64,000 nucleotides of DNA from the NCBI GenBank assembly GCA_963727905.1, contig CAVSIC010000021.1:34998-98997 (forward strand), in the 5' to 3' direction. The notes beneath the pieces were generated by a model. It saw only the letters and a list, made by a program, of their open reading frames with translations. It made no database searches and was not told the DNA's origin. The DNA comes from an uncultured Microthrixaceae bacterium. Lineage in GTDB: Bacteria > Actinomycetota > Acidimicrobiia > Acidimicrobiales > VFJN01. Position numbers and translations under genes: made by a program. Of the stretch, positions 1-53,559 are shown in pieces. How positions within the stretch are numbered: position 1 is the first letter of the stretch; the number at the start of each line of letters is the position of its first letter.

Positions 1-327
1 TCGACCGCGGACGACCGCGGGCACGCCGAGGTCGAAGACGTCCGTCGTGCCGGTCATCTCGAACACGCGCAGCACGGCCGGCGAGGCGTCCTCCACCACC
101 ACACGGCCCTCGCCCTGCGACAGCGCGATGAGGGCACCGAGCCCGCTCGAGTCGAGGAAGGTCACGGCGGAGAGGTCGAGCACGACGTCCTGGCCCCGGC
201 CCACGAGCTCGGCCACGAGTGCTTCGATCCGGTCACCGCCGTCCAGGTCCAGGTCGCCCGACGCCAGCACCCGGATGGGGCGAGCATCTGTGTCGACCCA
301 GAGGGAGAGCTCCTGCGCGTCCTGCAC
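1..327 (-). CDS. STAS-domain anti-sigma-factor antagonist (RsbV/SpoIIAA-like); C-terminus runs off the window edge
   Basis: Absent from the supplied ORF track because there is no stop inside the window. The reverse strand from GTG at 327-325, with GGAGG 5 nt upstream, reads VQDAQELSLWVDTDARPIRVLASGDLDLDGGDRIEALVAELVGRGQDVVLDLSAVTFLDSSGLGALIALSQGEGRVVVEDASPAVLRVFEMTG. This contains the STAS core 'LDLS.V.FLDSSGLG.L'. Confidence 0.75.
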   Translation of the reverse strand, partial: MQDAQELSLWVDTDARPIRVLASGDLDLDGGDRIEALVAELVGRGQDVVLDLSAVTFLDSSGLGALIALSQGEGRVVVEDASPAVLRVFEMTGTTDVFDLGVPAVVRGR

Positions 328-536
328 GGCTGCCTCCTAGCGGCATCGGGACCGCCCCAGCGGGTCGATCCGGTCTCCCCAGGCATTCCCGCTCGGGTCC
401 GGGCCCAACCCGCCCGGGCAGGTCTGCGATCTGAACGGGACGGGTAGGGCGGTCGGCGGTGCGAAGGACGGACCGAAGGACCAGCGCGGGCAAGCATCGG
501 AACGGAGCCCGGATCACCGTGGCACCGGGCCCGGGT

Positions 537-590
537 GCCCGCGATGAGGACCCGCGCATGAGGACCCGCGCATGAGGACCCGCGCATGAG
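537..590 (+). repeat. 14-bp tandem direct repeat ATGAGGACCCGCGC: 3 full copies (544, 558, 572) plus partial copies at both ends
   Basis: Read directly: gcccgcg ATGAGGACCCGCGC ATGAGGACCCGCGC ATGAGGACCCGCGC ATGAG. The last ATG (586) is the start codon of the downstream CDS. Confidence 0.95.
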
Positions 591-1770
591 TAGCGGCGCC
601 GTCGACCCGTTCGCGCTCGATCTCCCCGCCGACAGCTCGGCCCCTCGCCTCGCCCGATCCGCCGTGTCCGAGCTCGTCGGCGAGCACCCGCGGCACGACG
701 ACCTCCTGCTGTGCGTGTCCGAGGTCGTCACCAACGCGGTGCTCCACGCCCACTCCACCTCCCAGCTGCGGGTGCACCACGAGGGGAACCGCCTGATCGT
801 GGAGGTCCTCGACCACGACCCCACGATCCCGACCCGGCGCCAGCACGACCTCGCTGCCCCGACGGGCCGCGGACTCCACCTCCTCGACGCGCTCACCACC
901 GCGTGGGGCACCAGCCCCGCCGAGGGTGGGAAGATCGTCTGGTTCGAGTTCGACCTGCACGGGGGGCGGCCGGTGGCCGATGCGGGACAGGCGATGGCGC
1001 GCGTGGAGCTCGTGGGACTGCCCCTCGACGTCCACCGGCGCGCGAGCGAGCACGGGGAGACCCTCCGGCGCGAGCTCTCCCTCGTGCACTACGCCGCCTC
1101 GCCCGACGGGGTCCCCGTCCGGCTCTACGAGCTCGGCGTCGAGCTGGGCGAGCGCTACGGAGGCCTCAACAACGAGGTCGACGAGCGGATGGCCCAGGCC
1201 GTCGCCGACCTCGCGACCACCAGCGTCGACCTGTCCTACGTCCTGCCCGCCGCCGCCGCCGACGATGTCGAGCGCCTCGCCGGACTCCTCGACGAGCTCG
1301 ACCAGTACTGCGCCGACCGCGACCTCCTCACCTTGGTCACCCCGCCCGAGGCCCTCGCCTACCGGCGGTGGTGGCTGTCCGAGGTCATCGAGCAGCTCCG
1401 CGACGGACGACCGCCGCGCCCGTGGAGCGATCCCGGTGCCGACGCTCCCCCTGGGGCGGTGCCGGCCCGACCGGCGTCGGCCGTGACGGTCGACGGCGCC
1501 GCCGCCACCACCGTCGTCGTGGTCGGCGACCTCGATCTCGAGCAGGCCCCGCGACTGCGCGACGAGCTCGTCGGGCACGTCGACGCCGGAGTCCGCGAGA
1601 TCGTGGTCGACCTGGAGCGCTGCTCGTTCCTCGACTCCACTGGCATCAGCCTGCTCGTCACCACCCACCTCCGACTCGCCGCCGAGGGCGGCGGGCTGGC
1701 CTTGGCGAACCTGACCCCGCAGGTCGCCGCCGTGATCGAGCTCTCGGGGCTGCAAGAGATGATCCTGTAG
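586..1770 (+). CDS. Fusion protein: N-terminal RsbW/SpoIIAB-like HATPase_c anti-sigma serine-kinase domain, unassigned middle region, C-terminal STAS domain
   Basis: 394-aa ORF. The N-terminus 'LLLCVSEVVTNAVLHA ... PTGRGLHLLDALTTAWG' shows the kinase N-box and G-box pattern of anti-sigma kinases. The C-terminus 'VVVVGDLDLEQAPRLRDELV...VVDLERCSFLDSTGISLLVTTHLRL...LANLTPQVAAVIELSGL' is a STAS fold signature. Confidence 0.8.
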   Translation: MSSGAVDPFALDLPADSSAPRLARSAVSELVGEHPRHDDLLLCVSEVVTNAVLHAHSTSQLRVHHEGNRLIVEVLDHDPTIPTRRQHDLAAPTGRGLHLLDALTTAWGTSPAEGGKIVWFEFDLHGGRPVADAGQAMARVELVGLPLDVHRRASEHGETLRRELSLVHYAASPDGVPVRLYELGVELGERYGGLNNEVDERMAQAVADLATTSVDLSYVLPAAAADDVERLAGLLDELDQYCADRDLLTLVTPPEALAYRRWWLSEVIEQLRDGRPPRPWSDPGADAPPGAVPARPASAVTVDGAAATTVVVVGDLDLEQAPRLRDELVGHVDAGVREIVVDLERCSFLDSTGISLLVTTHLRLAAEGGGLALANLTPQVAAVIELSGLQEMIL

Positions 1771-1846
1771 GCGATGGGTCCGGGCGGAACCTCCGAGCAG
1801 CTGCCCACCCGCCGGTCGCGCCGCGCGCGGGCTGCCGGTCGCCCTG

Positions 1847-3961
1847 GTGCTGCTCGTCGGCGGCGTCTCCACGGCGCTCGTCTGGCACCGCGCGGACACC
1901 GACGTCGACCGACGTGACGACGCCGCGGTGAGCGCGACCGTCGACCTGATCGACGGGACCGTCATGGCGGTGCAAGCCGGGCTCTCCGGTGCCGACGCCC
2001 TCGTCCAGCAGGATGGCACCGTCAACCTCGACGCGTTCCGCTCGTACGCGTCCGGCGTCGTCGCAGCCACCACCCTGGAGTCGCTGGCGTTCGTGCCGAT
2101 CGTGCGCGAGGCCGACCGCGCCGCCTGGGAGCTGTCCACGGGCCGGACGATGATCGAGCGGCCCACCGCGGGGGCCGCGCCGGCGCCGCCCCGCCCGTTC
2201 CACTACCCCGTCACCGAGGTCGTCCCGATCACCGACGTGAACCGCGGCATCCTCGGCTTCGACCTGGCCGGCGATCCCATCCGTGGCACTGCGGCCGACC
2301 AGGCCCGGGACCGTGGGGTCCTCGTCTTCAGCGAGCCGGTGCCATCGCAGCCCACGGGCCGCCTCTCGTTCTTCCTCACCCGGGCCCTGTACCGGCCCGG
2401 GGTTCCCCTCGACACCGTGGCGCAGCGCCGCGACGCCACCGTGGCGTTCATGTCCACCGGATACCTGGCCGAGGTCCTGCACGACACCCTCATCGCCGGG
2501 CTCCCGAAGGGGACCTTCTTCGAGGTCCGCGACGGCACCACGTCGCTCGCCAGCGGCGGCAGCCACCACCGGCACGATGCCGAGCTCACCACCGAGGCCA
2601 CCGGCCGCACCTGGTCCGTCATCGCCGCCAACCCCAACGGTCCGACCCGCTGGCTGGCCGGGCTGATCGCCGGCGTCACGGTGCTGCTCACCGGCGCGCT
2701 GGCGATGCTGTGGCGCCGCACCAACCGCTACGACGACCAGGTCCTCCGGTCGACCACCCACCTCCAGGCCCTCGCCGGGTTCGCCACCGGCCTGGCCCCG
2801 CGCCGCAGCAGCGACGACGTGATGAGCTACCTCACGAGCGCCGTGCTCGCCCCGCTCGACGGGATCCATGCCGCCGTCGGCGTGGTCGAGGGCGATCGCC
2901 TCAAGCGCTACTTCACGCCGGGTCCGCTCGCCCAGGCCACCCGCACCGCGCTCCCGGCCACCAACCCGCTGTCCGCCGACACCCCCCTCACCGTCGCCGC
3001 CCGCACTGACGAGACGGTGCTCCTCGCGTCCACGGCCGAGATGCGCGACCGGTACCCGCACCTGGCCGACGCGTGGATGGCAGCCGGGTTCGGGGCGACG
3101 GCCAACCTCCCACTGCACGATCGCCAGGGCGCGGTGATCGGTGCCCTCGGTGTGGCGTGGGACCGCCCGGTGGAGTTCGACGCCGACCTCGTCGGCCGGC
3201 TCACCACCGTCGCCGGCATCGCCGGTCAGTCGTTGGAGCGGGCCCGGCTCGCCGACGCCGAGCACCGGCTGGTCGACGCGCTGCAGACCGATGTCCTTGC
3301 CCCGCTCCCCCACTCCGACGCCCTGGCCTGCGCCGCCCGCTACCTGCCCGCGTCCCAGTCCGTCGGGATGGGGGGCGACTGGTTCGAGGGGATCCTGCTC
3401 GACGACGGCCGCTACGTGGTGGTGGTCGGCGACATCGCCGGGCACGGGATCACCGCGGTCGGGCAGATGGCGCAGTTCCGCACGATGCTCGGCACCCTGA
3501 TCCGCCTCGGCACGCCCCTCGACGAGCTGATCGAACGGGCGTCGCGGTCGGTGGAGGGCACGGGGCGCATCGCCACCGCCGTCGTCGTGGCGATCGACCC
3601 GGCGGCCGGCACCCTCGCCTACGTGGCCGCCGGCCACCCGCCGCCGCTCCTGCGCCTCCCCGACGGCACCACGCGCGTCCTCGGCGACGGGCGCCGCCCG
3701 CTCATCGGCGTCACCCGTGCGTCCGACCCGGCCGGCACCCACGAGTTCCCGATCGGCGCGACCCTGCTCTGCTACACCGACGGGCTCATCGAACGGCGGA
3801 GCGAGTCGATCGACCTCTCGGTCCGACGCCTCGCCGAGCAGCTGACGGGGCTCAGCGCCGGCGACCCGGAGCGCATGGCCGACAGCCTGCTCGAGGCGTG
3901 CCTGTCGCCGGGCGAGCAGACCGACGACGTCGCCCTCGCGCTGATCACCCGCCGCGCGTAG
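1847..3961 (+). CDS. Membrane sensor phosphatase: CHASE extracytoplasmic domain - TM - GAF - PP2C/SpoIIE phosphatase (RsbU-like)
   Basis: 704-aa ORF. The N-terminal TM segment is followed by 'FHYPVTEVVPITDVNRGILGFDLAGDPIRGTAADQARDRGVLVFSEPV', which is CHASE-like. A second TM (WLAGLIAGVTVLLTGALAML) and a GAF-like region follow. The phosphatase part reads 'GGDWFEGILLDDGRYVVVVGDIAGHGITA...CYTDGLIERR...DDVALALI'. The only in-frame start after the upstream stop is GTG 1847 (CTG 1832 is possible). Confidence 0.85.
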   Translation: MLLVGGVSTALVWHRADTDVDRRDDAAVSATVDLIDGTVMAVQAGLSGADALVQQDGTVNLDAFRSYASGVVAATTLESLAFVPIVREADRAAWELSTGRTMIERPTAGAAPAPPRPFHYPVTEVVPITDVNRGILGFDLAGDPIRGTAADQARDRGVLVFSEPVPSQPTGRLSFFLTRALYRPGVPLDTVAQRRDATVAFMSTGYLAEVLHDTLIAGLPKGTFFEVRDGTTSLASGGSHHRHDAELTTEATGRTWSVIAANPNGPTRWLAGLIAGVTVLLTGALAMLWRRTNRYDDQVLRSTTHLQALAGFATGLAPRRSSDDVMSYLTSAVLAPLDGIHAAVGVVEGDRLKRYFTPGPLAQATRTALPATNPLSADTPLTVAARTDETVLLASTAEMRDRYPHLADAWMAAGFGATANLPLHDRQGAVIGALGVAWDRPVEFDADLVGRLTTVAGIAGQSLERARLADAEHRLVDALQTDVLAPLPHSDALACAARYLPASQSVGMGGDWFEGILLDDGRYVVVVGDIAGHGITAVGQMAQFRTMLGTLIRLGTPLDELIERASRSVEGTGRIATAVVVAIDPAAGTLAYVAAGHPPPLLRLPDGTTRVLGDGRRPLIGVTRASDPAGTHEFPIGATLLCYTDGLIERRSESIDLSVRRLAEQLTGLSAGDPERMADSLLEACLSPGEQTDDVALALITRRA

Positions 3962-4338: not shown

Positions 4339-4491
4339 TCAGCTGGTGCTTCGGCTTCGGAAGACGGAGTAGCCGCCCGGGCCGACGAGGCAGGCGGCGA
4401 CGAGCAGCAGCACCCCGAAGATGATCTGGCCCTGCAACAGCTGGACCACCCCGACGATGGCGATGATGACGGCGATGATGGGAAGGAGCAT
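4339..4491 (-). CDS. Small two-TM membrane protein with a GPGG motif (50 aa)
   Basis: Not in the ORF track. The reverse strand from ATG 4491 reads MLLPIIAVIIAIVGVVQLLQGQIIFGVLLLVAACLVGPGGYSVFRSRSTS*, i.e. two hydrophobic helices and a GPGG turn. It resembles the small 'GPGG-motif membrane protein' family as I recall it. Confidence 0.55.
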   Translation of the reverse strand: MLLPIIAVIIAIVGVVQLLQGQIIFGVLLLVAACLVGPGGYSVFRSRSTS

Positions 4492-4562
4492 GCCCACCCC
4501 CTACCCGGGCGCACGCGGCTAGAACCATCGGACCGATCGCACCCGCCGACCTGGAGGTCCCC

Positions 4563-9545: not shown

Positions 9546-10109
9546 CTACTGGGCCATCGCCTCCGACAGCGCCTCGGCCAGCTCTTCCTTCTTCATGTCC
9601 GACGCGCCGTCGATGCCGGCGTTCTCGGCCTCGGCGACGAGCTCCTCCTTGGACGAAGCCTTGGCGAGGGCCTCGGCCGGCATCGGCATGCCGAGGGCGA
9701 GCCGCTTGGCCATGAACGGCGTGGCCATGTCGGCCAGCACCGTCTCGCCATCCGAGCGGAGCTTCGGGAAGACGTCGTTCTCCTCCTCGTCGACGTGGTG
9801 CGTGATGCCGGCGATGAGCGCGTCGAGCGCGGCACCGAACCCGGGTTCGTCGGGGGCCAGCGACTGCACGTCCTTGAGGGCCTTCTTGGCGAGCTCGTGC
9901 TCGGTCTCGCCCTCCTGCACGGGCTCCTCGCCGGTGACGGGCTTCATCTTCGGGTACACGACCTCCTCCTCGAGCGCCATGTGCGCCAGGAGGTTGGTGG
10001 TCAGCTCCTCGATGAGAGGCGTGCGGGCGGCGCCCTCGGCCTTCTCGATCTTGTCGAAGAGCTCCTCCACCGTGCGGTGGTCGGCTTCCAGGATCCGGGT
10101 CACGTCCAT
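9546..10109 (-). CDS. Hemerythrin HHE cation-binding domain protein with a C-terminal Rho_N/SAP-like helix-extended-helix tail
   Basis: 187 aa. 'ILEADHRTVEELF', 'HMALEEEVVYP' and 'HHVDEEENDVFP' are hemerythrin His/Glu ligand motifs. The tail 'SKEELVAEAENAGIDGASDMKKEELAEAL' resembles the Rho N-terminal motif. Confidence 0.85.
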   Translation of the reverse strand: MDVTRILEADHRTVEELFDKIEKAEGAARTPLIEELTTNLLAHMALEEEVVYPKMKPVTGEEPVQEGETEHELAKKALKDVQSLAPDEPGFGAALDALIAGITHHVDEEENDVFPKLRSDGETVLADMATPFMAKRLALGMPMPAEALAKASSKEELVAEAENAGIDGASDMKKEELAEALSEAMAQ

Positions 10110-10123
10110 TGCGCGTCCTCCAT

Positions 10124-10157
10124 CGGGGTGGGTTGGGAACCGGGGTGGGTTGGGAAC
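10124..10157. repeat. Perfect 17-bp tandem direct repeat CGGGGTGGGTTGGGAAC x2
   Basis: Read directly at 10124-10140 and 10141-10157. It starts 15 nt upstream of the hemerythrin start codon (10109, minus strand), in the divergent intergenic region. Confidence 0.95.
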
Positions 10158-10231
10158 GACCCGCCGCTACCCAGGCCCGGGCTCGTCCAACCAACGGGTT
10201 TGCCGCCGCCGAAGGCGGGTAGCGGCTGCCG

Positions 10232-11281
10232 ATGACCATCCTGAGCCCGAGCGGCCCGAGCACCGCAGGACCCGAGGATCGGCCCGTCGACCTGCCTGCC
10301 GCCCGCGGCCCGGTGTCCGGTTGGCTGCTCCACCATCTCCGTCGCCCGGTGCACGACGTCGGTCGGGCGCCGATGGCGGACGACCACCCGATCACCGGCG
10401 AGGACAGCGCGCTCGCGCTGTACCTCTGCTACGAGCTCCACTACCTCGGCCTCCCGGACGTGGAGGAGAGCTGGGAGTGGGAGCCGTCGCTGCTGGCCGT
10501 GCGGGCCGGCCTCGAACACCGCTTCGAGCGGGCGCTGGTCGACCTCGTCGGCCACCCCCCGGTCGGCCTCGCCGCCGAGGACGTGGTCGACGACCTCCGG
10601 AGCCTCGCCGAGGGCGGCGACGACGGGCCTTCGCTCTCCGCCCACCTCGAGGCGGCCGGCACCCTGACCGAAGCCCGCGAGCTGGCGGTCCACCGCTCCG
10701 CCTACCAGCTCAAGGAGGCCGATCCACACACCTGGGGGCTCCCCCGCCTGACCGGCCGGGCCAAGGCCGGGATGCTCGAGATCCAGCGCGGCGAGTACGG
10801 CGACGGAGATCCGAACGAGGTCCACGCCACGCTGTTCGCCCGGACGATGCGGGCCCTCGGGCTCGACGCCCGCTACGGGGCGCTCGTCGACCAGGTGCCG
10901 GCCATCTCCCTGAGCACGTGCAACCTCATCTCGCTCTTCGGCCTGCACCGCCGCTGGCGGGGCGCGCTCGTCGGCCACCTCGCGCTGTTCGAGATGTGCT
11001 CGGTGACGCCCATGAGCCGCTACCAGCGCGGCCTCGAGCGCCTCGGCCTCGACGAGGCGGCCACCCGCTTCTACGCGGCGCACGTCATCGCCGACGAGCA
11101 CCACCAGGTGGTGGCCTTGCGCGACATGGTCCGCCCACTCGTGGAGGACGAGCCGTTCCTCAGCGGCGAGGTGGTGTTCGGAGCGCGGGCCCTGCAGGCG
11201 GTCGAGTCGTTGTTCGCCGAGCACGTGCTGGGCGCCTGGGAGCGGGGCGAGACCTCGCTGCGCTCGGGCGACCTCGGCTAG
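10232..11281 (+). CDS. Iron-containing redox enzyme family protein (heme-oxygenase-like fold, Haem_oxygenas_2 type)
   Basis: 349 aa. 'ALALYLCYELHYLG', 'HRSAYQLKEADPHTW' and 'EIQRGEYGDGDPNEVHATLFARTM...FEMCSVTPMSRY...HVIADEHH' match the helical di-iron/heme-oxygenase-like family as I recognise it. Confidence 0.75.
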   Translation: MTILSPSGPSTAGPEDRPVDLPAARGPVSGWLLHHLRRPVHDVGRAPMADDHPITGEDSALALYLCYELHYLGLPDVEESWEWEPSLLAVRAGLEHRFERALVDLVGHPPVGLAAEDVVDDLRSLAEGGDDGPSLSAHLEAAGTLTEARELAVHRSAYQLKEADPHTWGLPRLTGRAKAGMLEIQRGEYGDGDPNEVHATLFARTMRALGLDARYGALVDQVPAISLSTCNLISLFGLHRRWRGALVGHLALFEMCSVTPMSRYQRGLERLGLDEAATRFYAAHVIADEHHQVVALRDMVRPLVEDEPFLSGEVVFGARALQAVESLFAEHVLGAWERGETSLRSGDLG

Positions 11282-11310
11282 CGACCCGCCGAGGCGGGTA
11301 CGCCCCGACC

Positions 11311-12192
11311 ATGCCCCGCCCCGTCTGGACCGGTTCGCTCTCCTTCGGCCTGGTCAACGTCCCCGTGAAGGCGTTCACCGCCACGCGGGACCACTCCGTC
11401 CACTTCCACCAGCTGGAGAAGAAGACCGGCGCCCGCATCCGCAACCAGCGGGTGTCCGACAAGACCGGCAAGCAGGTCGACGCCGACGACATCGAGATGG
11501 GCTACGAGCTGCGCAAGGGCCGCTACGTCACCTTCGAGAAGGACGAGCTCGAGGAGCTCAAGCCGGAGTCGACCCGAGCGGTCGAGGTCACCGACTTCGT
11601 GGCGCTGGAGGACATCGACCCGATGTTCTACGACCGCACCTACTGGCTGGCCCCCGCCGACGACCACGCCAAGGAGGCGTACCAGCTCCTCCACGCGGCG
11701 ATGGTCGAGCGCGGCCGCGTGGGCATCGGCACGGTGGTGATGCGCAACAACCAGTACCTCACCGCCATCCGACCCATCGACAAGGCGCTCGCCATGTCGA
11801 CGATGCGCTTCGCCGACGAGATCGTCGACCGCAGCGACATCGACGGGCTCCCCACCCGCCGCACCAAGCCCAGCCCCAAGGCGTTGCAGCTGGCCACGCA
11901 GATCGTCGACGCGCTGTCGAGCGAGTGGAACCCCGAGCAGTACCACGACACCTACACCGAGGAGCTCGAGGACATCATCGCCAAGAAGGACAAGGGCAAG
12001 GCCGACGTGGTGGAGGAGTCGGGCACCACCGAGCCCCGTGCCGACGTCGGCGACCTGATGGCCGCCCTCGAGGCCAGCATCTCGAAGTCGGGGCGCAAGG
12101 GCTCCTCCCGGCGCTCGTCCCGGCCGGCCACCAAGACGGGCACCGCATCCGGCACGACCACCAAGCGCAAGGCCCGCGCCAAGGCCGGCTGA
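11311..12192 (+). CDS. ku: Ku protein (non-homologous end joining)
   Basis: 293 aa starting at ATG 11311, inside the spurious track ORF 9229..12192. 'MPRPVWTGSLSFGLVNVPVKAFTATRDHSVHFHQL...GYELRKGRYVTFEKDELE...MFYDRTYWLAP' is the canonical bacterial Ku core. The tail is Lys/Arg-rich. Confidence 0.92.
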   Translation: MPRPVWTGSLSFGLVNVPVKAFTATRDHSVHFHQLEKKTGARIRNQRVSDKTGKQVDADDIEMGYELRKGRYVTFEKDELEELKPESTRAVEVTDFVALEDIDPMFYDRTYWLAPADDHAKEAYQLLHAAMVERGRVGIGTVVMRNNQYLTAIRPIDKALAMSTMRFADEIVDRSDIDGLPTRRTKPSPKALQLATQIVDALSSEWNPEQYHDTYTEELEDIIAKKDKGKADVVEESGTTEPRADVGDLMAALEASISKSGRKGSSRRSSRPATKTGTASGTTTKRKARAKAG

Positions 12193-14530: not shown

Positions 14531-15130
14531 ATGACCACCGCACCGGAAGCGCTCATCCGCGACCTCGAGCACGAAGATGCCCTCGACGGACCGCAGCAGG
14601 TGATCGGGCGGATCCGCGACGCCCTCCCCGACCCCGTTCGGGAGGAGCTCGAGGGCCAGCGGCTCGGCCATCGGCTCCACCCGCTGTTCACGGACCTGCC
14701 GATCGGGTTCTGGACCAGCGCCTTCTGCATCGACCTCGTCGCCCCGCGCCGTGGCGCCACGGCCGCCCGTCGGTTCGTCGGCCTGGGCGTCCTCAGCGCC
14801 CTGCCCGCCGTGGCCACCGGCGTGGCCGACTTCGGCTACCTCTCGCCGGGCAAGCGGCGGGTCGCGGTGGTGCACGTCGCGGCCAACGCCACCGCCACGG
14901 CGACGTACGGCCTGTCGTACCTGGCTCGGCGCCGGGGCCACCTCGCCCGCGGCATCGTGCTCGGGATGGTGGGGGCCGGGCTCGCGACCGCCGGCGGGTT
15001 CCTGGGCGGCCACCTCGCCTTCGGCCACGACAGCCTCGGCGACGGGGCCGACGCCCCGGCGCCGGAGTCGGCCGGCGTGAGCGTGGCGACCGATCCCGCC
15101 AACGGCCACGCGGTGCCGCTGCGCGTCTGA
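14531..15130 (+). CDS. DUF2231-like integral membrane protein
   Basis: 199 aa. 'HPLFTDLPIGFWTSAFCIDL' followed by three further hydrophobic helices, matching the DUF2231 pattern as I recall it. Confidence 0.65.
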   Translation: MTTAPEALIRDLEHEDALDGPQQVIGRIRDALPDPVREELEGQRLGHRLHPLFTDLPIGFWTSAFCIDLVAPRRGATAARRFVGLGVLSALPAVATGVADFGYLSPGKRRVAVVHVAANATATATYGLSYLARRRGHLARGIVLGMVGAGLATAGGFLGGHLAFGHDSLGDGADAPAPESAGVSVATDPANGHAVPLRV

Positions 15131-15178
15131 CGCTCCTCGTCGCGCCTGACGCTCCTCGTCGACCCCTACGCTCGCATC

Positions 15179-42915: not shown

Positions 42916-44339
42916 CAGATGAACCCTCGGTCCGGGGTGATCCGCTTCCACTTGCCGTTGACGACCTGCATGAGCACGTAGCACCCGTTGCTCAGCTTCT
43001 TGCCGAGCTGGATCGGCCCGAAGAACCCGTCGGCGTCGTAGGTGCCCGTCCCCCGCAGCTGGGCCAGGAGCGCGTCCCGGGAGATGGGCCCGGGGAGGGC
43101 CTTCACGGAGTCGAAGAAGGCCTTCGACGCCGCCCAGGCGTCGGCCGCGAAGTAGTCGGGGCGGACCCCGGGGGCCACCCGCGCCATCCACTCGACGAAG
43201 CGGGCGGTCTCCGGGTTGGATCCCGCCTCCTCGGTGGGGAGCGAGCGGATCCAGGTGACGGCGTTCTCCGCCGCGGCCTCGCCGGCCACCTCGATGAAGT
43301 CGGACCCGTAGCCGGAGATCAGCTCGAGCTGCTTGAGCTTGTACCCGGTGTCGTACATCGCCCGCGCCATCGTGGCGTTCAGGTTCCCGGCGGCCGGGTA
43401 GAAGAGGTAGTCGGCCTTGCTGTTGGCCACGCCCCGGGCGGCCGCGTCGTAGCTGATCGTGCTGAGCGGGAGCGCCTGCTCGTTCACGATCTTGATGCCG
43501 ACGGCCTGCATCTGCGCCTTCTGCTGCTCGACCTGCGTCCGCACGATGGCGTTGTCGATGTACACGAGGGCGGCCCTCCGGATGCCCTGGGCGTACAGGT
43601 ACTTGTACTTGCCGATCTGCGCGTTGACGTTCGCGAACGGGGGGTTGATGTCGAAGACGGTGGGGGCGGCCTGGAACGTGTCGGCCGTGGCCGTGGCGAC
43701 CACCGGGATCTTCGCGTTGGTCACGATGTCGACCCCACCGCCGTCGCCTGAGGCCAGCCCGCCGGAGATGCCGAGGATCTGCGGGTTGAAGCCCGTGATG
43801 AGGGACCGGTACCGCGCGTTCTCGAAGCCGTCGTCGCCGGACTTGAGCACCACCTGGCGCCCGCACACGCCACCGGTGGCGTTGAGGTAGGCGACGTAGG
43901 CCCGCGACGCGGCGGCCGAGGTCTCGCCCAGGCCGGGAAGGGGGCCGGAGATGGTGTTGATGGCGGCCACCGTGATGGTCTGGGCGGTGACGCCGGGCGC
44001 GGTCGACGGCGCTGCGCAGGGCCGAGGGCCCGAGGCGCCACCCGTGCCGCCGCCGGTGGTCCCGCCGGTGCCGCCGGTGGTCCCGCCGGTGCCGCCGGTC
44101 GTCCCGCCGTCGGTCGCGCCGGCCACCGTGGAGGCCGTCGGGGAATCGGAGCCGCCGTCGCCGCCATCGGTCGCGTCGGCGCCGCTCCCCGCACCGCGGT
44201 TGACGACGAACGAGCGCTCCTCGTCCGACCAGCGGGAGCCGCAGGCCGCCGTGGCGATCAACGCGCACAGCAGGAGCAGCGCAGTGGCGCGACGGGCCGC
44301 CCTGATCGTGCGCGGTGCGCTCAGATCCCCAGCGGCCAT
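42912..44339 (-). CDS. ABC transporter substrate-binding lipoprotein (LivJ/Peripla_BP_6-like), intact
   Basis: ATG 44339 (GGGGAG upstream) is preferred over the track's TTG 44357. The signal and lipobox-like 'LLLLCALIATAAC' are followed by a Gly/Thr-rich linker. The body includes 'ITVAAINTISGPLPGLGETSAAASRAYVAYLNATGGVCGRQV...'. Confidence 0.85.
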   Translation of the reverse strand: MAAGDLSAPRTIRAARRATALLLLCALIATAACGSRWSDEERSFVVNRGAGSGADATDGGDGGSDSPTASTVAGATDGGTTGGTGGTTGGTGGTTGGGTGGASGPRPCAAPSTAPGVTAQTITVAAINTISGPLPGLGETSAAASRAYVAYLNATGGVCGRQVVLKSGDDGFENARYRSLITGFNPQILGISGGLASGDGGGVDIVTNAKIPVVATATADTFQAAPTVFDINPPFANVNAQIGKYKYLYAQGIRRAALVYIDNAIVRTQVEQQKAQMQAVGIKIVNEQALPLSTISYDAAARGVANSKADYLFYPAAGNLNATMARAMYDTGYKLKQLELISGYGSDFIEVAGEAAAENAVTWIRSLPTEEAGSNPETARFVEWMARVAPGVRPDYFAADAWAASKAFFDSVKALPGPISRDALLAQLRGTGTYDADGFFGPIQLGKKLSNGCYVLMQVVNGKWKRITPDRGFIC

Positions 44340-52017: not shown

Positions 52018-53559
52018 GACGTCTTCCTGCACCGCGCACTCGAACGGGCCGCCGCCCGGCTCGGAGCCCGCGACGCGGTGCTCGTCGGCGACGACCGCTT
52101 CTCGTTCGCCGACCTCGACGGGCGCAGCAACGCGGTCGCCCGTCACCTGGCCGGGTGCGGGGTGGCCAGGGGCGATCGGGTCGCCGTGATGATGACCAAC
52201 CGCGTCGAGTTCGTCCTCGTGGTGAACGCGGTCAGCAAGCTCGGGGCCGCGTCGGTGCTGCTCAGCCCGGCATGGAAGTCGCTCGAGGTCACCCACGCGA
52301 TCGGCCTCACGGCCCCCACCCACGCGGTGGCCGACGAGCCCGGTTCCGCGCTCCTCGCCGAGGTGCTCGGCGCGGAGCACGTGACGGACCTCAGCGACGC
52401 CGCCGCCCTCGCGGCTGCGCTCGACCACCCGACGGACCCGCTCGACCTCGCTGCGCTCGACCTCGCTGCGCTCGACCCCGTCGCGCTGGAGCCGGCCGAC
52501 GAGGCGATCCTCGTGTTCAGCTCCGGCACCACCGGGCTCCCGAAGGCGGTCCGCCACACGCACGCGTCGATGGGTGCCGCCACCCGGCACTGGGTCGCCG
52601 CCCTCGGCCTGGGGCCGGAGGACCGGTTCCAGGTGGCCACTCCCCCGTCGCACATCCTCGGCCTGCTCAACCTGCTGGCCGCGGCGGAGGCGGGCGCCAC
52701 GGTGCGCCTGCACGGCCGCTTCGACCTCGACGAGGTCCTCCGCCGGATCGGGTCCGATCGGATCACCCTCGAGATGGCGGTCGCCCCCATCGCCCTCGCG
52801 ATGGCCAACCACCCCACGCTGGAGTCCTTCGACCTCTCGTCGCTCCGCTACATCATGTGGGGCGCCACACCGGTCACCGAGAGCGTGGCCGCCACCGTCA
52901 CCGAGCGCACCGGCGTCCGCTTCCTGCCGGCCTACGGCGCCAGCGAGTTCCCCGTGCTCGCCTGCAACCCGGTGGCCGACCCCACCCGCTGGCGGCTCGA
53001 CTCCGCCGGGCTCCCCCCGACCGAGGTGGAGCTGCGCGTCGTCGACCTCGACACCCGCGAGGTGCTCGAGCCGGGAGGCATCGGCGAGATCCAGGCCCGC
53101 GGGCCGTCGGTCATGTCCGGGTACCTCCCCGACGAGGCCAACGCCGACGCGTTCGAGGACGGGTGGTACCGCACGGGCGACGTGGGGTGGCTCGAGGCCG
53201 AGGGCTGGGTGCACCTCACCGACCGGTCGAAGGAGATGATCAAGGTCAACGGCTTCCAGGTGGCCCCGGCCGAGATCGAGGCCGTGCTGCACGGTCACCC
53301 CGCCGTGCTCGACTGCGCGGTGTTCGGCATGGCCGACGAGCGGGCCGGCGAGGTGCCGGTCGCCGCGGTGCAGCTCGACCCCGACCGGCCGGTGGCCGAC
53401 GGCGAGCTCGAGCAGCTCGTGGCCGACTCGCTCGCCACCTACAAGCACCTCCGCCACCTCGTGGTGGTCGACGCCATCCCGCGGCTGCCGTCCGGGAAGG
53501 TGCTGCGGCGCACGCTCCGCGACGAGTGGACGCCCAAGCTCACCGCGGCGGACCGCTGA
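51991..53559 (+). CDS. AMP-dependent acyl-CoA synthetase 2 (start codon unresolved)
   Basis: 'LVFSSGTTGLPKAV', 'YGASEF', 'TGDVGWLEAEGWVHLTDRSKEMIKVNGFQVAPAEIE' and 'LPSGKVLRRTLR' are present. The N-terminal 'FLHRALERAAARLGARDAVLVGDDRFSFADLDGRSNAVARHL' is a normal ligase N-terminus, but no stop separates it from ligase 1. Confidence 0.8.
   Translation: MKDELRARRDVFLHRALERAAARLGARDAVLVGDDRFSFADLDGRSNAVARHLAGCGVARGDRVAVMMTNRVEFVLVVNAVSKLGAASVLLSPAWKSLEVTHAIGLTAPTHAVADEPGSALLAEVLGAEHVTDLSDAAALAAALDHPTDPLDLAALDLAALDPVALEPADEAILVFSSGTTGLPKAVRHTHASMGAATRHWVAALGLGPEDRFQVATPPSHILGLLNLLAAAEAGATVRLHGRFDLDEVLRRIGSDRITLEMAVAPIALAMANHPTLESFDLSSLRYIMWGATPVTESVAATVTERTGVRFLPAYGASEFPVLACNPVADPTRWRLDSAGLPPTEVELRVVDLDTREVLEPGGIGEIQARGPSVMSGYLPDEANADAFEDGWYRTGDVGWLEAEGWVHLTDRSKEMIKVNGFQVAPAEIEAVLHGHPAVLDCAVFGMADERAGEVPVAAVQLDPDRPVADGELEQLVADSLATYKHLRHLVVVDAIPRLPSGKVLRRTLRDEWTPKLTAADR

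Follow-up and report, generated by a model that had tools for sequence, protein, structure and literature searches.

A perfect 14-bp tandem array at the start codon of a kinase-STAS gene, a probable lineage-specific duplication of an upstream-ORF coupling junction in an uncultured Microthrixaceae bacterium

Results

Genes and features at the locus

The window (the whole stretch of DNA analyzed, 64,000 nt from an uncultured Microthrixaceae bacterium) begins with a partner-switching module composed of a divergent STAS gene, a kinase-STAS gene and a CHASE-GAF-PP2C phosphatase gene. A leader with a promoter-like box, an upstream ORF and a tandem array precedes the kinase-STAS gene, and the array runs into its start codon. 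Features are given in window coordinates.

1..327, minus strand: divergent STAS (anti-sigma-factor antagonist) gene, GTG at 327, GGAGG upstream, continuing past the window edge
422..447, plus strand: SigB/SigF-like promoter candidate, GTCT 422-425, 16-nt spacer, GGGTAG 442-447
459..575, plus strand: upstream ORF, GTG 459 to TGA 573-575, 38 codons, VRRTDRRTSAGKHRNGARITVAPGPGARDEDPRMRTRA, putatively translated
538..543, plus strand: degenerate copy of the 3' part of the repeat unit, CCCGCG, one C short of CCCGCGC
544-557, 558-571 and 572-585, plus strand: the 14-bp unit ATGAGGACCCGCGC in three perfect copies, together a 42-bp insertion that every relative lacks
544..561, plus strand: mini-ORF 1 (MRTRA), TGA 559-561 overlapping ATG 558; no GAGGA upstream, GGGTG 6 nt before
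558..575, plus strand: mini-ORF 2 (MRTRA), TGA 573-575 overlapping ATG 572; identical to the last five codons of the upstream ORF
572..589, plus strand: mini-ORF 3 (MRTRA), bridging the upstream-ORF stop and the main start, TGA 587-589 overlapping ATG 586
574..578, plus strand: GAGGA Shine-Dalgarno (SD)-like core, 7 nt before ATG 586; identical copies at 546-550 and 560-564
586..1770, plus strand: kinase-STAS gene, RsbW-like Ser kinase (HATPase_c_2) fused to STAS, 394 aa (Pfam, orthologs, N-terminal alignment)
1774..3961, plus strand: CHASE-GAF-SpoIIE (PP2C) phosphatase gene, downstream in the same module (Pfam)

The label kinase-STAS, which had been given to 586..1770 in a first-pass annotation made from the sequence, was upheld by Pfam: HATPase_c_2 was matched with 35.6 bits and a C-terminal STAS domain with 57 bits, and the kinase domain is of the RsbW/SpoIIAB type. 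ATG 586 is the earliest possible start in the frame of this ORF, and the N-terminus of the product aligns with the starts of its orthologs.

Synteny of the divergent STAS gene is kept at the related loci L012, L014, L017 and L019, and not at L013. At L013 (positions 1-1330) an unrelated 153-aa ORF and an Nramp gene take the place of the divergent STAS gene, while the promoter box and the upstream ORF are still present; the leader therefore belongs to the kinase-STAS gene rather than to its divergent neighbor.

Separately, the phosphatase gene shows an apparent 1-nt frameshift (window 1774-1850; frames compared with L011 and L012). ATG 1774 stands 4 nt past the kinase-STAS stop, likewise in orthologs, and opens MGPGGTSEQLPTRR..., whereas the long phosphatase ORF runs in the +1 frame from GTG 1847 and encodes 704 aa, against 728-730 aa in orthologs. 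The shift is also seen in L014, near GGGCT(G/A)CCGG; a pseudogene, recoding or a systematic error of sequencing could each account for it. Two minus-strand ORFs over the array (233..559 and 514..2166) were rejected as typical spurious ORFs of high-GC DNA, with no support.

Anatomy of the array

Positions 538-590 read CCCGCG ATGAGGACCCGCGC ATGAGGACCCGCGC ATGAGGACCCGCGC ATGAG, where the terminal ATGAG (586-590) begins a fourth copy and at the same time opens the kinase-STAS gene. Direct inspection and Tandem Repeats Finder (TRF) agreed with the earlier description of units at 544, 558 and 572 and a partial unit at 586, the full copies being identical. TRF reported 538-590 with a period of 14, 3.9 copies, 97% matches, one indel and a score of 99, the second highest in the window. 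No further copy of the exact 14-mer was found anywhere in the 64 kb, and allowing ≤2 mismatches gave 3 other matches there, against ~2 expected by chance. Three perfect tandem 14-mers are not a product of chance; this is a true tandem duplication.

Every unit ATG opens ATG AGG ACC CGC GCA TGA (MRTRA), and the TGA overlaps the following ATG as ATGA. The mini-ORFs had been described as lying in successively different frames, with the third ending on ATG 586, and this proved exact: 544 is in frame 1, 558 in frame 0, 572 in frame 2 and 586 in frame 1. All three forward frames are thus closed by a TGA that overlaps an ATG. The frame of the upstream ORF stays open across units 1 and 2, and the ATGA of unit 3 (ATG 572) closes it. 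The assignment of a GAGGA core and an ATG to each unit was likewise borne out, with cores at 546-550, 560-564 and 574-578 that all stand 7 nt ahead of the following ATG, and the calculated anti-SD duplex was -5.6 kcal/mol for each of ATG 558, 572 and 586. Internal units read ATGAGGA where the gene reads ATGAGTA; the sole difference is the G that completes the SD.

This geometry arises because 14 = 3x5-1 and the duplicated 14 bp contain ATGA. Overlapping mini-ORFs are an automatic outcome of any (3n-1)-bp duplication that includes ATGA, and selection is unnecessary to account for them. Selection for the MRTRA peptide itself was considered and rejected: 2 of the 4 sense codons after ATG are rare (AGG and GCA; AGG makes up 2.8% of Arg codons here), and the peptide is absent from all relatives. 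A likeness of the unit to the 5' end of the gene (ATGAG...GACCCG..CGCGC) and to a leader string, GGACCAGCGCG, was also set aside as too weak for a GC-rich genome.

Other tandem repeats were present in the window. The one nearest in kind is a second perfect non-triplet duplication, 17 bp x 2 (CGGGGTGGGTTGGGAAC, 10124-10157), in the leader of a hemerythrin gene between a SigB-like box and a GGAGGA SD; short leader slippage duplications thus recur in this genome. Further repeats were recorded at 44049-44122 (21 bp x 2.9, score 115), 52439-52477 (15 bp x 2.6, perfect) and 15122-15173 (19 bp x 2.7).

The array is confined to one genome

Relatives of the kinase-STAS protein were confined to uncultured Acidimicrobiia, and the closest species representative was a Microthrixaceae metagenome-assembled genome (MAG) with 50% identity. 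DNA was compared at 12 related loci, of which 9 were distinct (L019-L024 and L025/L026 are duplicate contigs); orthologs P0003 and P0016 were left out of this comparison. Protein identity to the window ranged from 50 to over 90%: L013, L014 and L017 fall in the same 90%-identity cluster, followed by L011 (89%), L012 (78%), L018 (~75%), L019-L024 (63%), L025/L026 (63%) and L001 (50%).

The repeat was absent from 9/9 distinct related loci, and at each of them the homologous position holds one start codon only. In alignments with L011, L012, L013, L014 and L017, the window differs by 42 bp that are inserted cleanly at the start codon. The 14-mer was absent from the 24 related loci searched and from viral contigs, and L025/L026, checked by eye, also lacked it. 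A genome-collection scan returned a sole match, the 50%-identical Microthrixaceae ortholog, which has a different upstream region and its own SD. A metagenome scan with the 20-mer at the gene start gave 2 unrelated chance matches only, and no second allele was found there. On these sequence comparisons, the array appears specific to the lineage of the window; because its copies are perfect, it is taken to be young. Counting repeat units in related genomes, a check proposed with the first-pass annotation, thus returned a single start codon and no array at all 9 distinct loci, and the idea that the array is a conserved leader design did not survive the comparison, since even the three relatives in the same 90% cluster lack it.

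The array could be an artefact of assembly or polishing, in which a single true junction was stuttered into three. The window comes from a MAG, the exact protein was found only on one 380-kb NCBI/ENA contig, related ENA MAGs contain indel errors (the frameshifts of L017), and the adjoining phosphatase gene has its own apparent 1-nt frameshift. However, the array (47 bp including the partial unit) is shorter than any read, its flanks align cleanly with those of relatives, and the consensus errors of long-read or short-read assemblies usually take the form of homopolymer indels rather than of a 14-bp unit copied perfectly three times. We give an artefact only a slim chance.

The units could also be a direct-repeat array of binding sites for a DNA- or RNA-binding regulator. 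Three identical sites do lie in a regulatory region, and the related string GGACCAGCGCG occurs at 479-489 within a conserved leader block. Set against this, the repeat is absent in every ortholog even though the module and the promoter/leader block are conserved, a 14-bp spacing is off helical phasing, and the motif was found nowhere else in the 64-kb window, the 24 related loci or the viral contigs. Conservation of the regulators without conservation of the sites makes a binding-site array very unlikely, and it was given almost no weight.

A conserved upstream ORF is coupled to the gene in orthologs

The GTG of the upstream ORF is invariant across all aligned orthologs. In L013, L014, L012, L019 and L025 it opens an ORF of 29, 29, 31, 29 and 30 codons, respectively, whose TGA in each case overlaps the main ATG as ATGA. 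GTG-to-TGA distances in the order L013, L014, L012, L019 and L025 are 87, 87, 93, 87 and 90 nt, all multiples of 3. The 3' halves of these ORFs are unalignable, and their lengths are nonetheless in frame. In L025, a 1-nt difference causes the conserved block to be read in another frame, and the total length is again in frame. The probability of such frame conservation by chance is roughly 1 in 27, counting the five orthologs as three length classes. The second codon of the main gene starts with A in 8/8 loci with an ATG start, while the residue varies (S, T, M). No SD-like motif was seen before the main ATG in the orthologs with a coupled ORF.

These patterns point to selection acting on the coupling rather than on the peptide. 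A conserved peptide was examined as a candidate and rejected, as third positions are not enriched in substitutions and the conserved block has another reading frame in L025. Conserved ATGA coupling of the upstream ORF to the kinase-STAS gene is, from the comparative evidence, well supported but not proven, and the gene family appears to rely on it. Two relatives are without the coupled ORF: L011 (100-130) and L001 (2970-2992) start with GTGG and carry the strong SD-like sequences GGGGAGAG and GAGGAGGAG, respectively. This pattern suggests that, in evolution, dependence on coupling and dependence on an SD have been exchanged for one another. L017 (503-1774) is an exception to the rule; with a GTG-to-ATGA distance of 88 nt, its upstream ORF runs in frame into the kinase-STAS ORF. 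As the L017 coding sequence has obvious internal frameshifts, this fusion is probably a long-read assembly error. A one-unit allele of the window would, by prediction, be fused in the way that L017 is.

In the window, the distance from GTG to the first ATGA is 86 nt, against 87 nt in the closest orthologs, because a C is missing in the 538-543 copy. The duplicated unit is therefore a copy of the probable coupling junction, composed of the 3' end of the upstream ORF, the ATGA and the first bases of the gene. The first-pass annotation had proposed that ribosomes step from termination to reinitiation into the main gene. That proposal gained credibility from orthologs that have an ATGA-coupled ORF and no SD.

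Promoter-like box and leader

A box of the form (N)GTCT-N16-GGGTAG is found at the matching position in L012, L013, L014, L017, L019 and L025, and the invariant GTG of the upstream ORF lies 10-11 nt past GGGTAG. We take the motif to be a SigB/SigF-type general-stress promoter, a prediction that follows from the features of such promoters and from its positional pattern. The pattern G[GT][TC]T-N14-17-GGGTA[CGT] occurred 5 times in the window versus 1.2 expected, and 3/200 simulations reached 5. All five sites have a 16-nt spacer and the form G[GT][TC]T-N16-GGGTA[GC]. At three of them an ATG stands exactly 9 nt downstream. Sites and associated genes are as follows.

422-447, plus strand: motif site upstream of the kinase-STAS leader
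4501-4526, minus strand: motif site
10167-10192, minus strand: motif site
10197-10222, plus strand: motif site
11276-11301, plus strand: motif site
4342-4491, minus strand: 50-aa membrane protein gene, after a 9-nt site
10232-11278: iron-containing redox enzyme gene, after a 9-nt site
11311-12189: Ku gene, after a 9-nt site
9549-10109, minus strand: hemerythrin-domain protein gene, after one further motif site

The 9-nt spacing suggests leaderless mRNAs, and the five sites together look like a general-stress regulon. Compared with the 9 nt before the ATG of the three apparently leaderless genes, the 10-11 nt before the GTG of the upstream ORF indicate that this ORF may have a leader of 1-2 nt. 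The array begins 97 nt downstream of the box. Control of promoter-to-start spacing by repeat number, offered earlier as an alternative role for the array, is unlikely, as the box ends 138 nt upstream of the main start and the array lies inside the predicted transcribed leader.

A block of ~60 nt after GGGTAG (window 448-505; GGCGGTCGGCGGTGCGAaCGACGGACCG..GGACCAGCGCGGGCGAGC), seen in the window and in L012, L013, L014, L017, L019 and L025, is conserved down to 63% protein identity. Since orthologs read this block in different frames, the constraint is on nucleotides (an operator or RNA element). RNAalifold placed a small invariant hairpin (CGGU...ACCG) around the GTG start, with no covariation, and no Rfam family was matched in the leader. 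Scans of 250-750 for sigma-70 promoters and terminators found nothing. Folding of the leader, the array region included, was less stable than that of shuffled sequences (z = +1.86 and +1.94), so the array region appears accessible and a structural switch is unlikely. An attenuator or stalling leader with alternative hairpins was accordingly rejected, given stability below that of shuffles, no Rfam match and no covariation.

The poor structure of the region also suits a rival reading, in which the only consequence of the duplication is a gained ribosome-binding site: the GAGGA before the main ATG would bind ribosomes, and the upstream ORF and MRTRA ORFs would be minor or weak decoys. GAGGA 574-578 is ideally spaced and its anti-SD duplex is -5.6 kcal/mol, GGAGG or GGAGGA lies 5-7 nt before the starts of other genes in the window, and orthologs have no SD whereas the two relatives that lost the coupled ORF gained strong ones. 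Nevertheless, ATG 558 and 572 share the SD and context of ATG 586, so that about two-thirds of direct initiations would fall on mini-ORFs and pay off only with working reinitiation, and the conserved upstream ORF has been kept whole, with its end on an ATGA. As a full account, a binding-site gain is possible and on balance unlikely.

Linkage as a function of copy number

The leader was rebuilt in silico with 0-6 units on the window sequence, each unit lengthening it by 14 nt against the fixed frame of the upstream ORF. With 0 units, the upstream ORF stops at the TAG in ATGAGTAG, a -8 overlap that results because the window leader is 1 nt shorter than those of relatives (86 vs 87 nt). One unit fuses the upstream ORF in frame to the kinase (+33 aa), 2 units give direct ATGA coupling, the observed 3 units give one relay and 4 units give two, and more units add further relays. 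No copy number breaks the main reading frame; the linkage of the upstream ORF alone changes.

These outcomes allow for a selected copy-number switch or rheostat (a contingency locus), in which slippage sets the link with the upstream ORF and so tunes or toggles a stress regulator; they give a specific shape to the slipped-strand switch suggested in the first-pass annotation. Phase variation, to our knowledge, is not known in environmental Acidimicrobiia, which counts against such a switch. In its favor are 42 bp of perfect tandem homology, a computed linkage that differs per unit number from 0 to 4, and the precedent of VNTR3239, upstream of M. tuberculosis fpg, which correlates with expression (PMC2734929). 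However, the array was found in one genome only and no second copy number came to light, a 14-mer in three copies is a poor substrate for slippage next to classical contingency loci, and the main reading frame is intact at every copy number. A selected switch was therefore judged distinctly unlikely. Still fainter is a more elaborate form, a selected, slippage-driven translational gearbox that shifts between -8 overlap, fusion, -4 coupling and relays and that perhaps arose in rescuing the 1-nt deletion. If true, it would give heritable yet reversible expression states of a stress partner-switching module.

Discussion

Proposed origin of the array

The array would be a recent, lineage-specific tandem duplication of the junction, most likely made by replication slippage. 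In the conserved type of leader, a stress-type sigma factor would transcribe the kinase-STAS gene, ribosomes would load on the GTG at or very near the 5' end and translate the short ORF, and termination on ATGA would then be followed by reinitiation on the main ATG. Here, the 14 bp around the junction (CCCGCGC-ATGAG-GA) occur in three extra perfect copies. The upstream ORF consequently ends on the third ATGA, and the five-codon ORF 572-589 would relay the ribosome to ATG 586, at the price of one additional termination-reinitiation step for ribosomes arriving from the upstream ORF. With GAGGA 7 nt before ATG 586, direct SD-led initiation would also become newly possible.

The duplication would be tolerated, and perhaps mildly useful, because the coupling signal is regenerated in every frame. 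With the mechanism and ALTERNATIVES weighed, we favor with moderate confidence a slippage duplication that was tolerated since it regenerates the hand-off signal. We do not think that the array is an evolved regulatory device. Two qualifications apply to its effect on the gene: a five-codon relay containing the rare AGG could be inefficient, such that the array lowers expression, and the coupling could be irrelevant if the new SD dominates.

Comparison with known systems

Coupled small ORFs with an RTGA overlap are over-represented in mycobacteria, where the architecture is conserved and the peptide is not (Shell et al., 2015, PMC4633059). Of the coupling motifs, the -4 overlap is the most frequent and the easiest to evolve, and short coupled ORFs may serve solely for ribosome delivery (reviewed in PMC12548453). 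The upstream ORF described here resembles this class: its 38 codons in the window and 29-31 codons in five orthologs are within the range of 5-50 codons, it is co-oriented with the gene, and its architecture is conserved without its peptide (lengths in frame, 3' halves unalignable). The -4 ATGA overlap is direct in five orthologs, and in the window it is made via ATG 572 and then 586. Unlike the mycobacterial cases, the window has the junction four times in tandem with a mini-ORF relay interposed. The RTGA-coupled ORFs of Mycobacterium belong to leaderless transcripts; the GTG here lies 10-11 nt after the -10-like box, against 9 nt for the ATG of the three apparently leaderless genes in the window.

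Tandem units at start codons have also been described in Actinobacteria. MIRUs lie at mycobacterial start codons with an internal ORF coupled at -4 (PMC12548453, citing Supply 1997); MIRU-VNTR units, as outlined there and in PMC2734929 after Supply et al. (1997), measure 40-100 bp, occupy ~41 dispersed loci and look mobile. The window array shares with them the actinobacterial host, the tandem units at a start codon and a unit ORF that overlaps the next start by -4. It differs in its 14-bp unit, in a unit derived from the local junction with an ORF of just 5 codons, and in its occurrence at one locus only, with no further copy among the 64 kb of the window and the 24 related loci searched. MIRU copy number can vary and affect expression, whereas the window array is known from one allele. 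By analogy, the array would work like a MIRU array, although it is not one, as unit size and dispersal do not agree. The earlier statement that no leader with this architecture has been described was too strong in view of the -4 ORFs of MIRUs (PMC12548453) and of RTGA-coupled ORFs (PMC4633059).

As in contingency loci and VNTRs, perfect tandem repeats are placed by a gene start, and slippage could alter copy number and expression. Unlike in contingency loci, the copies are few, the unit is long and the main frame is never disrupted. On/off control in such loci acts through the reading frame or promoter spacing; here the array lies between the box and the main ATG, and a change in copy number would alter the linkage of the upstream ORF alone.

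In a bicistronic design, a short leader ORF holds the downstream SD and its stop overlaps the downstream start, an arrangement that is robust to context. Each 14-bp unit is laid out exactly in this manner; the cassette is engineered and single, and the array is natural and triplicated. Such synthetic cassettes are mentioned as ref 78 of PMC12548453.

Significance

The array represents no new class of regulator; it is a known type of translational coupling whose junction was duplicated in one lineage. By itself, the repeat is a one-genome curiosity, ordinary in origin, which shows how a gene can survive the duplication of its start codon. Were the number of units to vary within the population, the array would act as a translational rheostat of an unusual sort. 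Nature has also set up an experiment in the triplicated junction: its identical SD-ATG-stop modules follow one another and cover all three frames, and they could be used to measure the efficiency of reinitiation after very short ORFs. Its wider value is that it exposed a conserved, previously unannotated upstream ORF that is ATGA-coupled to an SD-less RsbW-STAS fusion gene, downstream of a candidate promoter of the general-stress type, in uncultured Acidimicrobiia. Judged by its conservation among orthologs, this coupling would carry the 'coupled small ORF' mode of initiation, known from mycobacteria, into a further class of Actinobacteria and to a gene with a signalling role.
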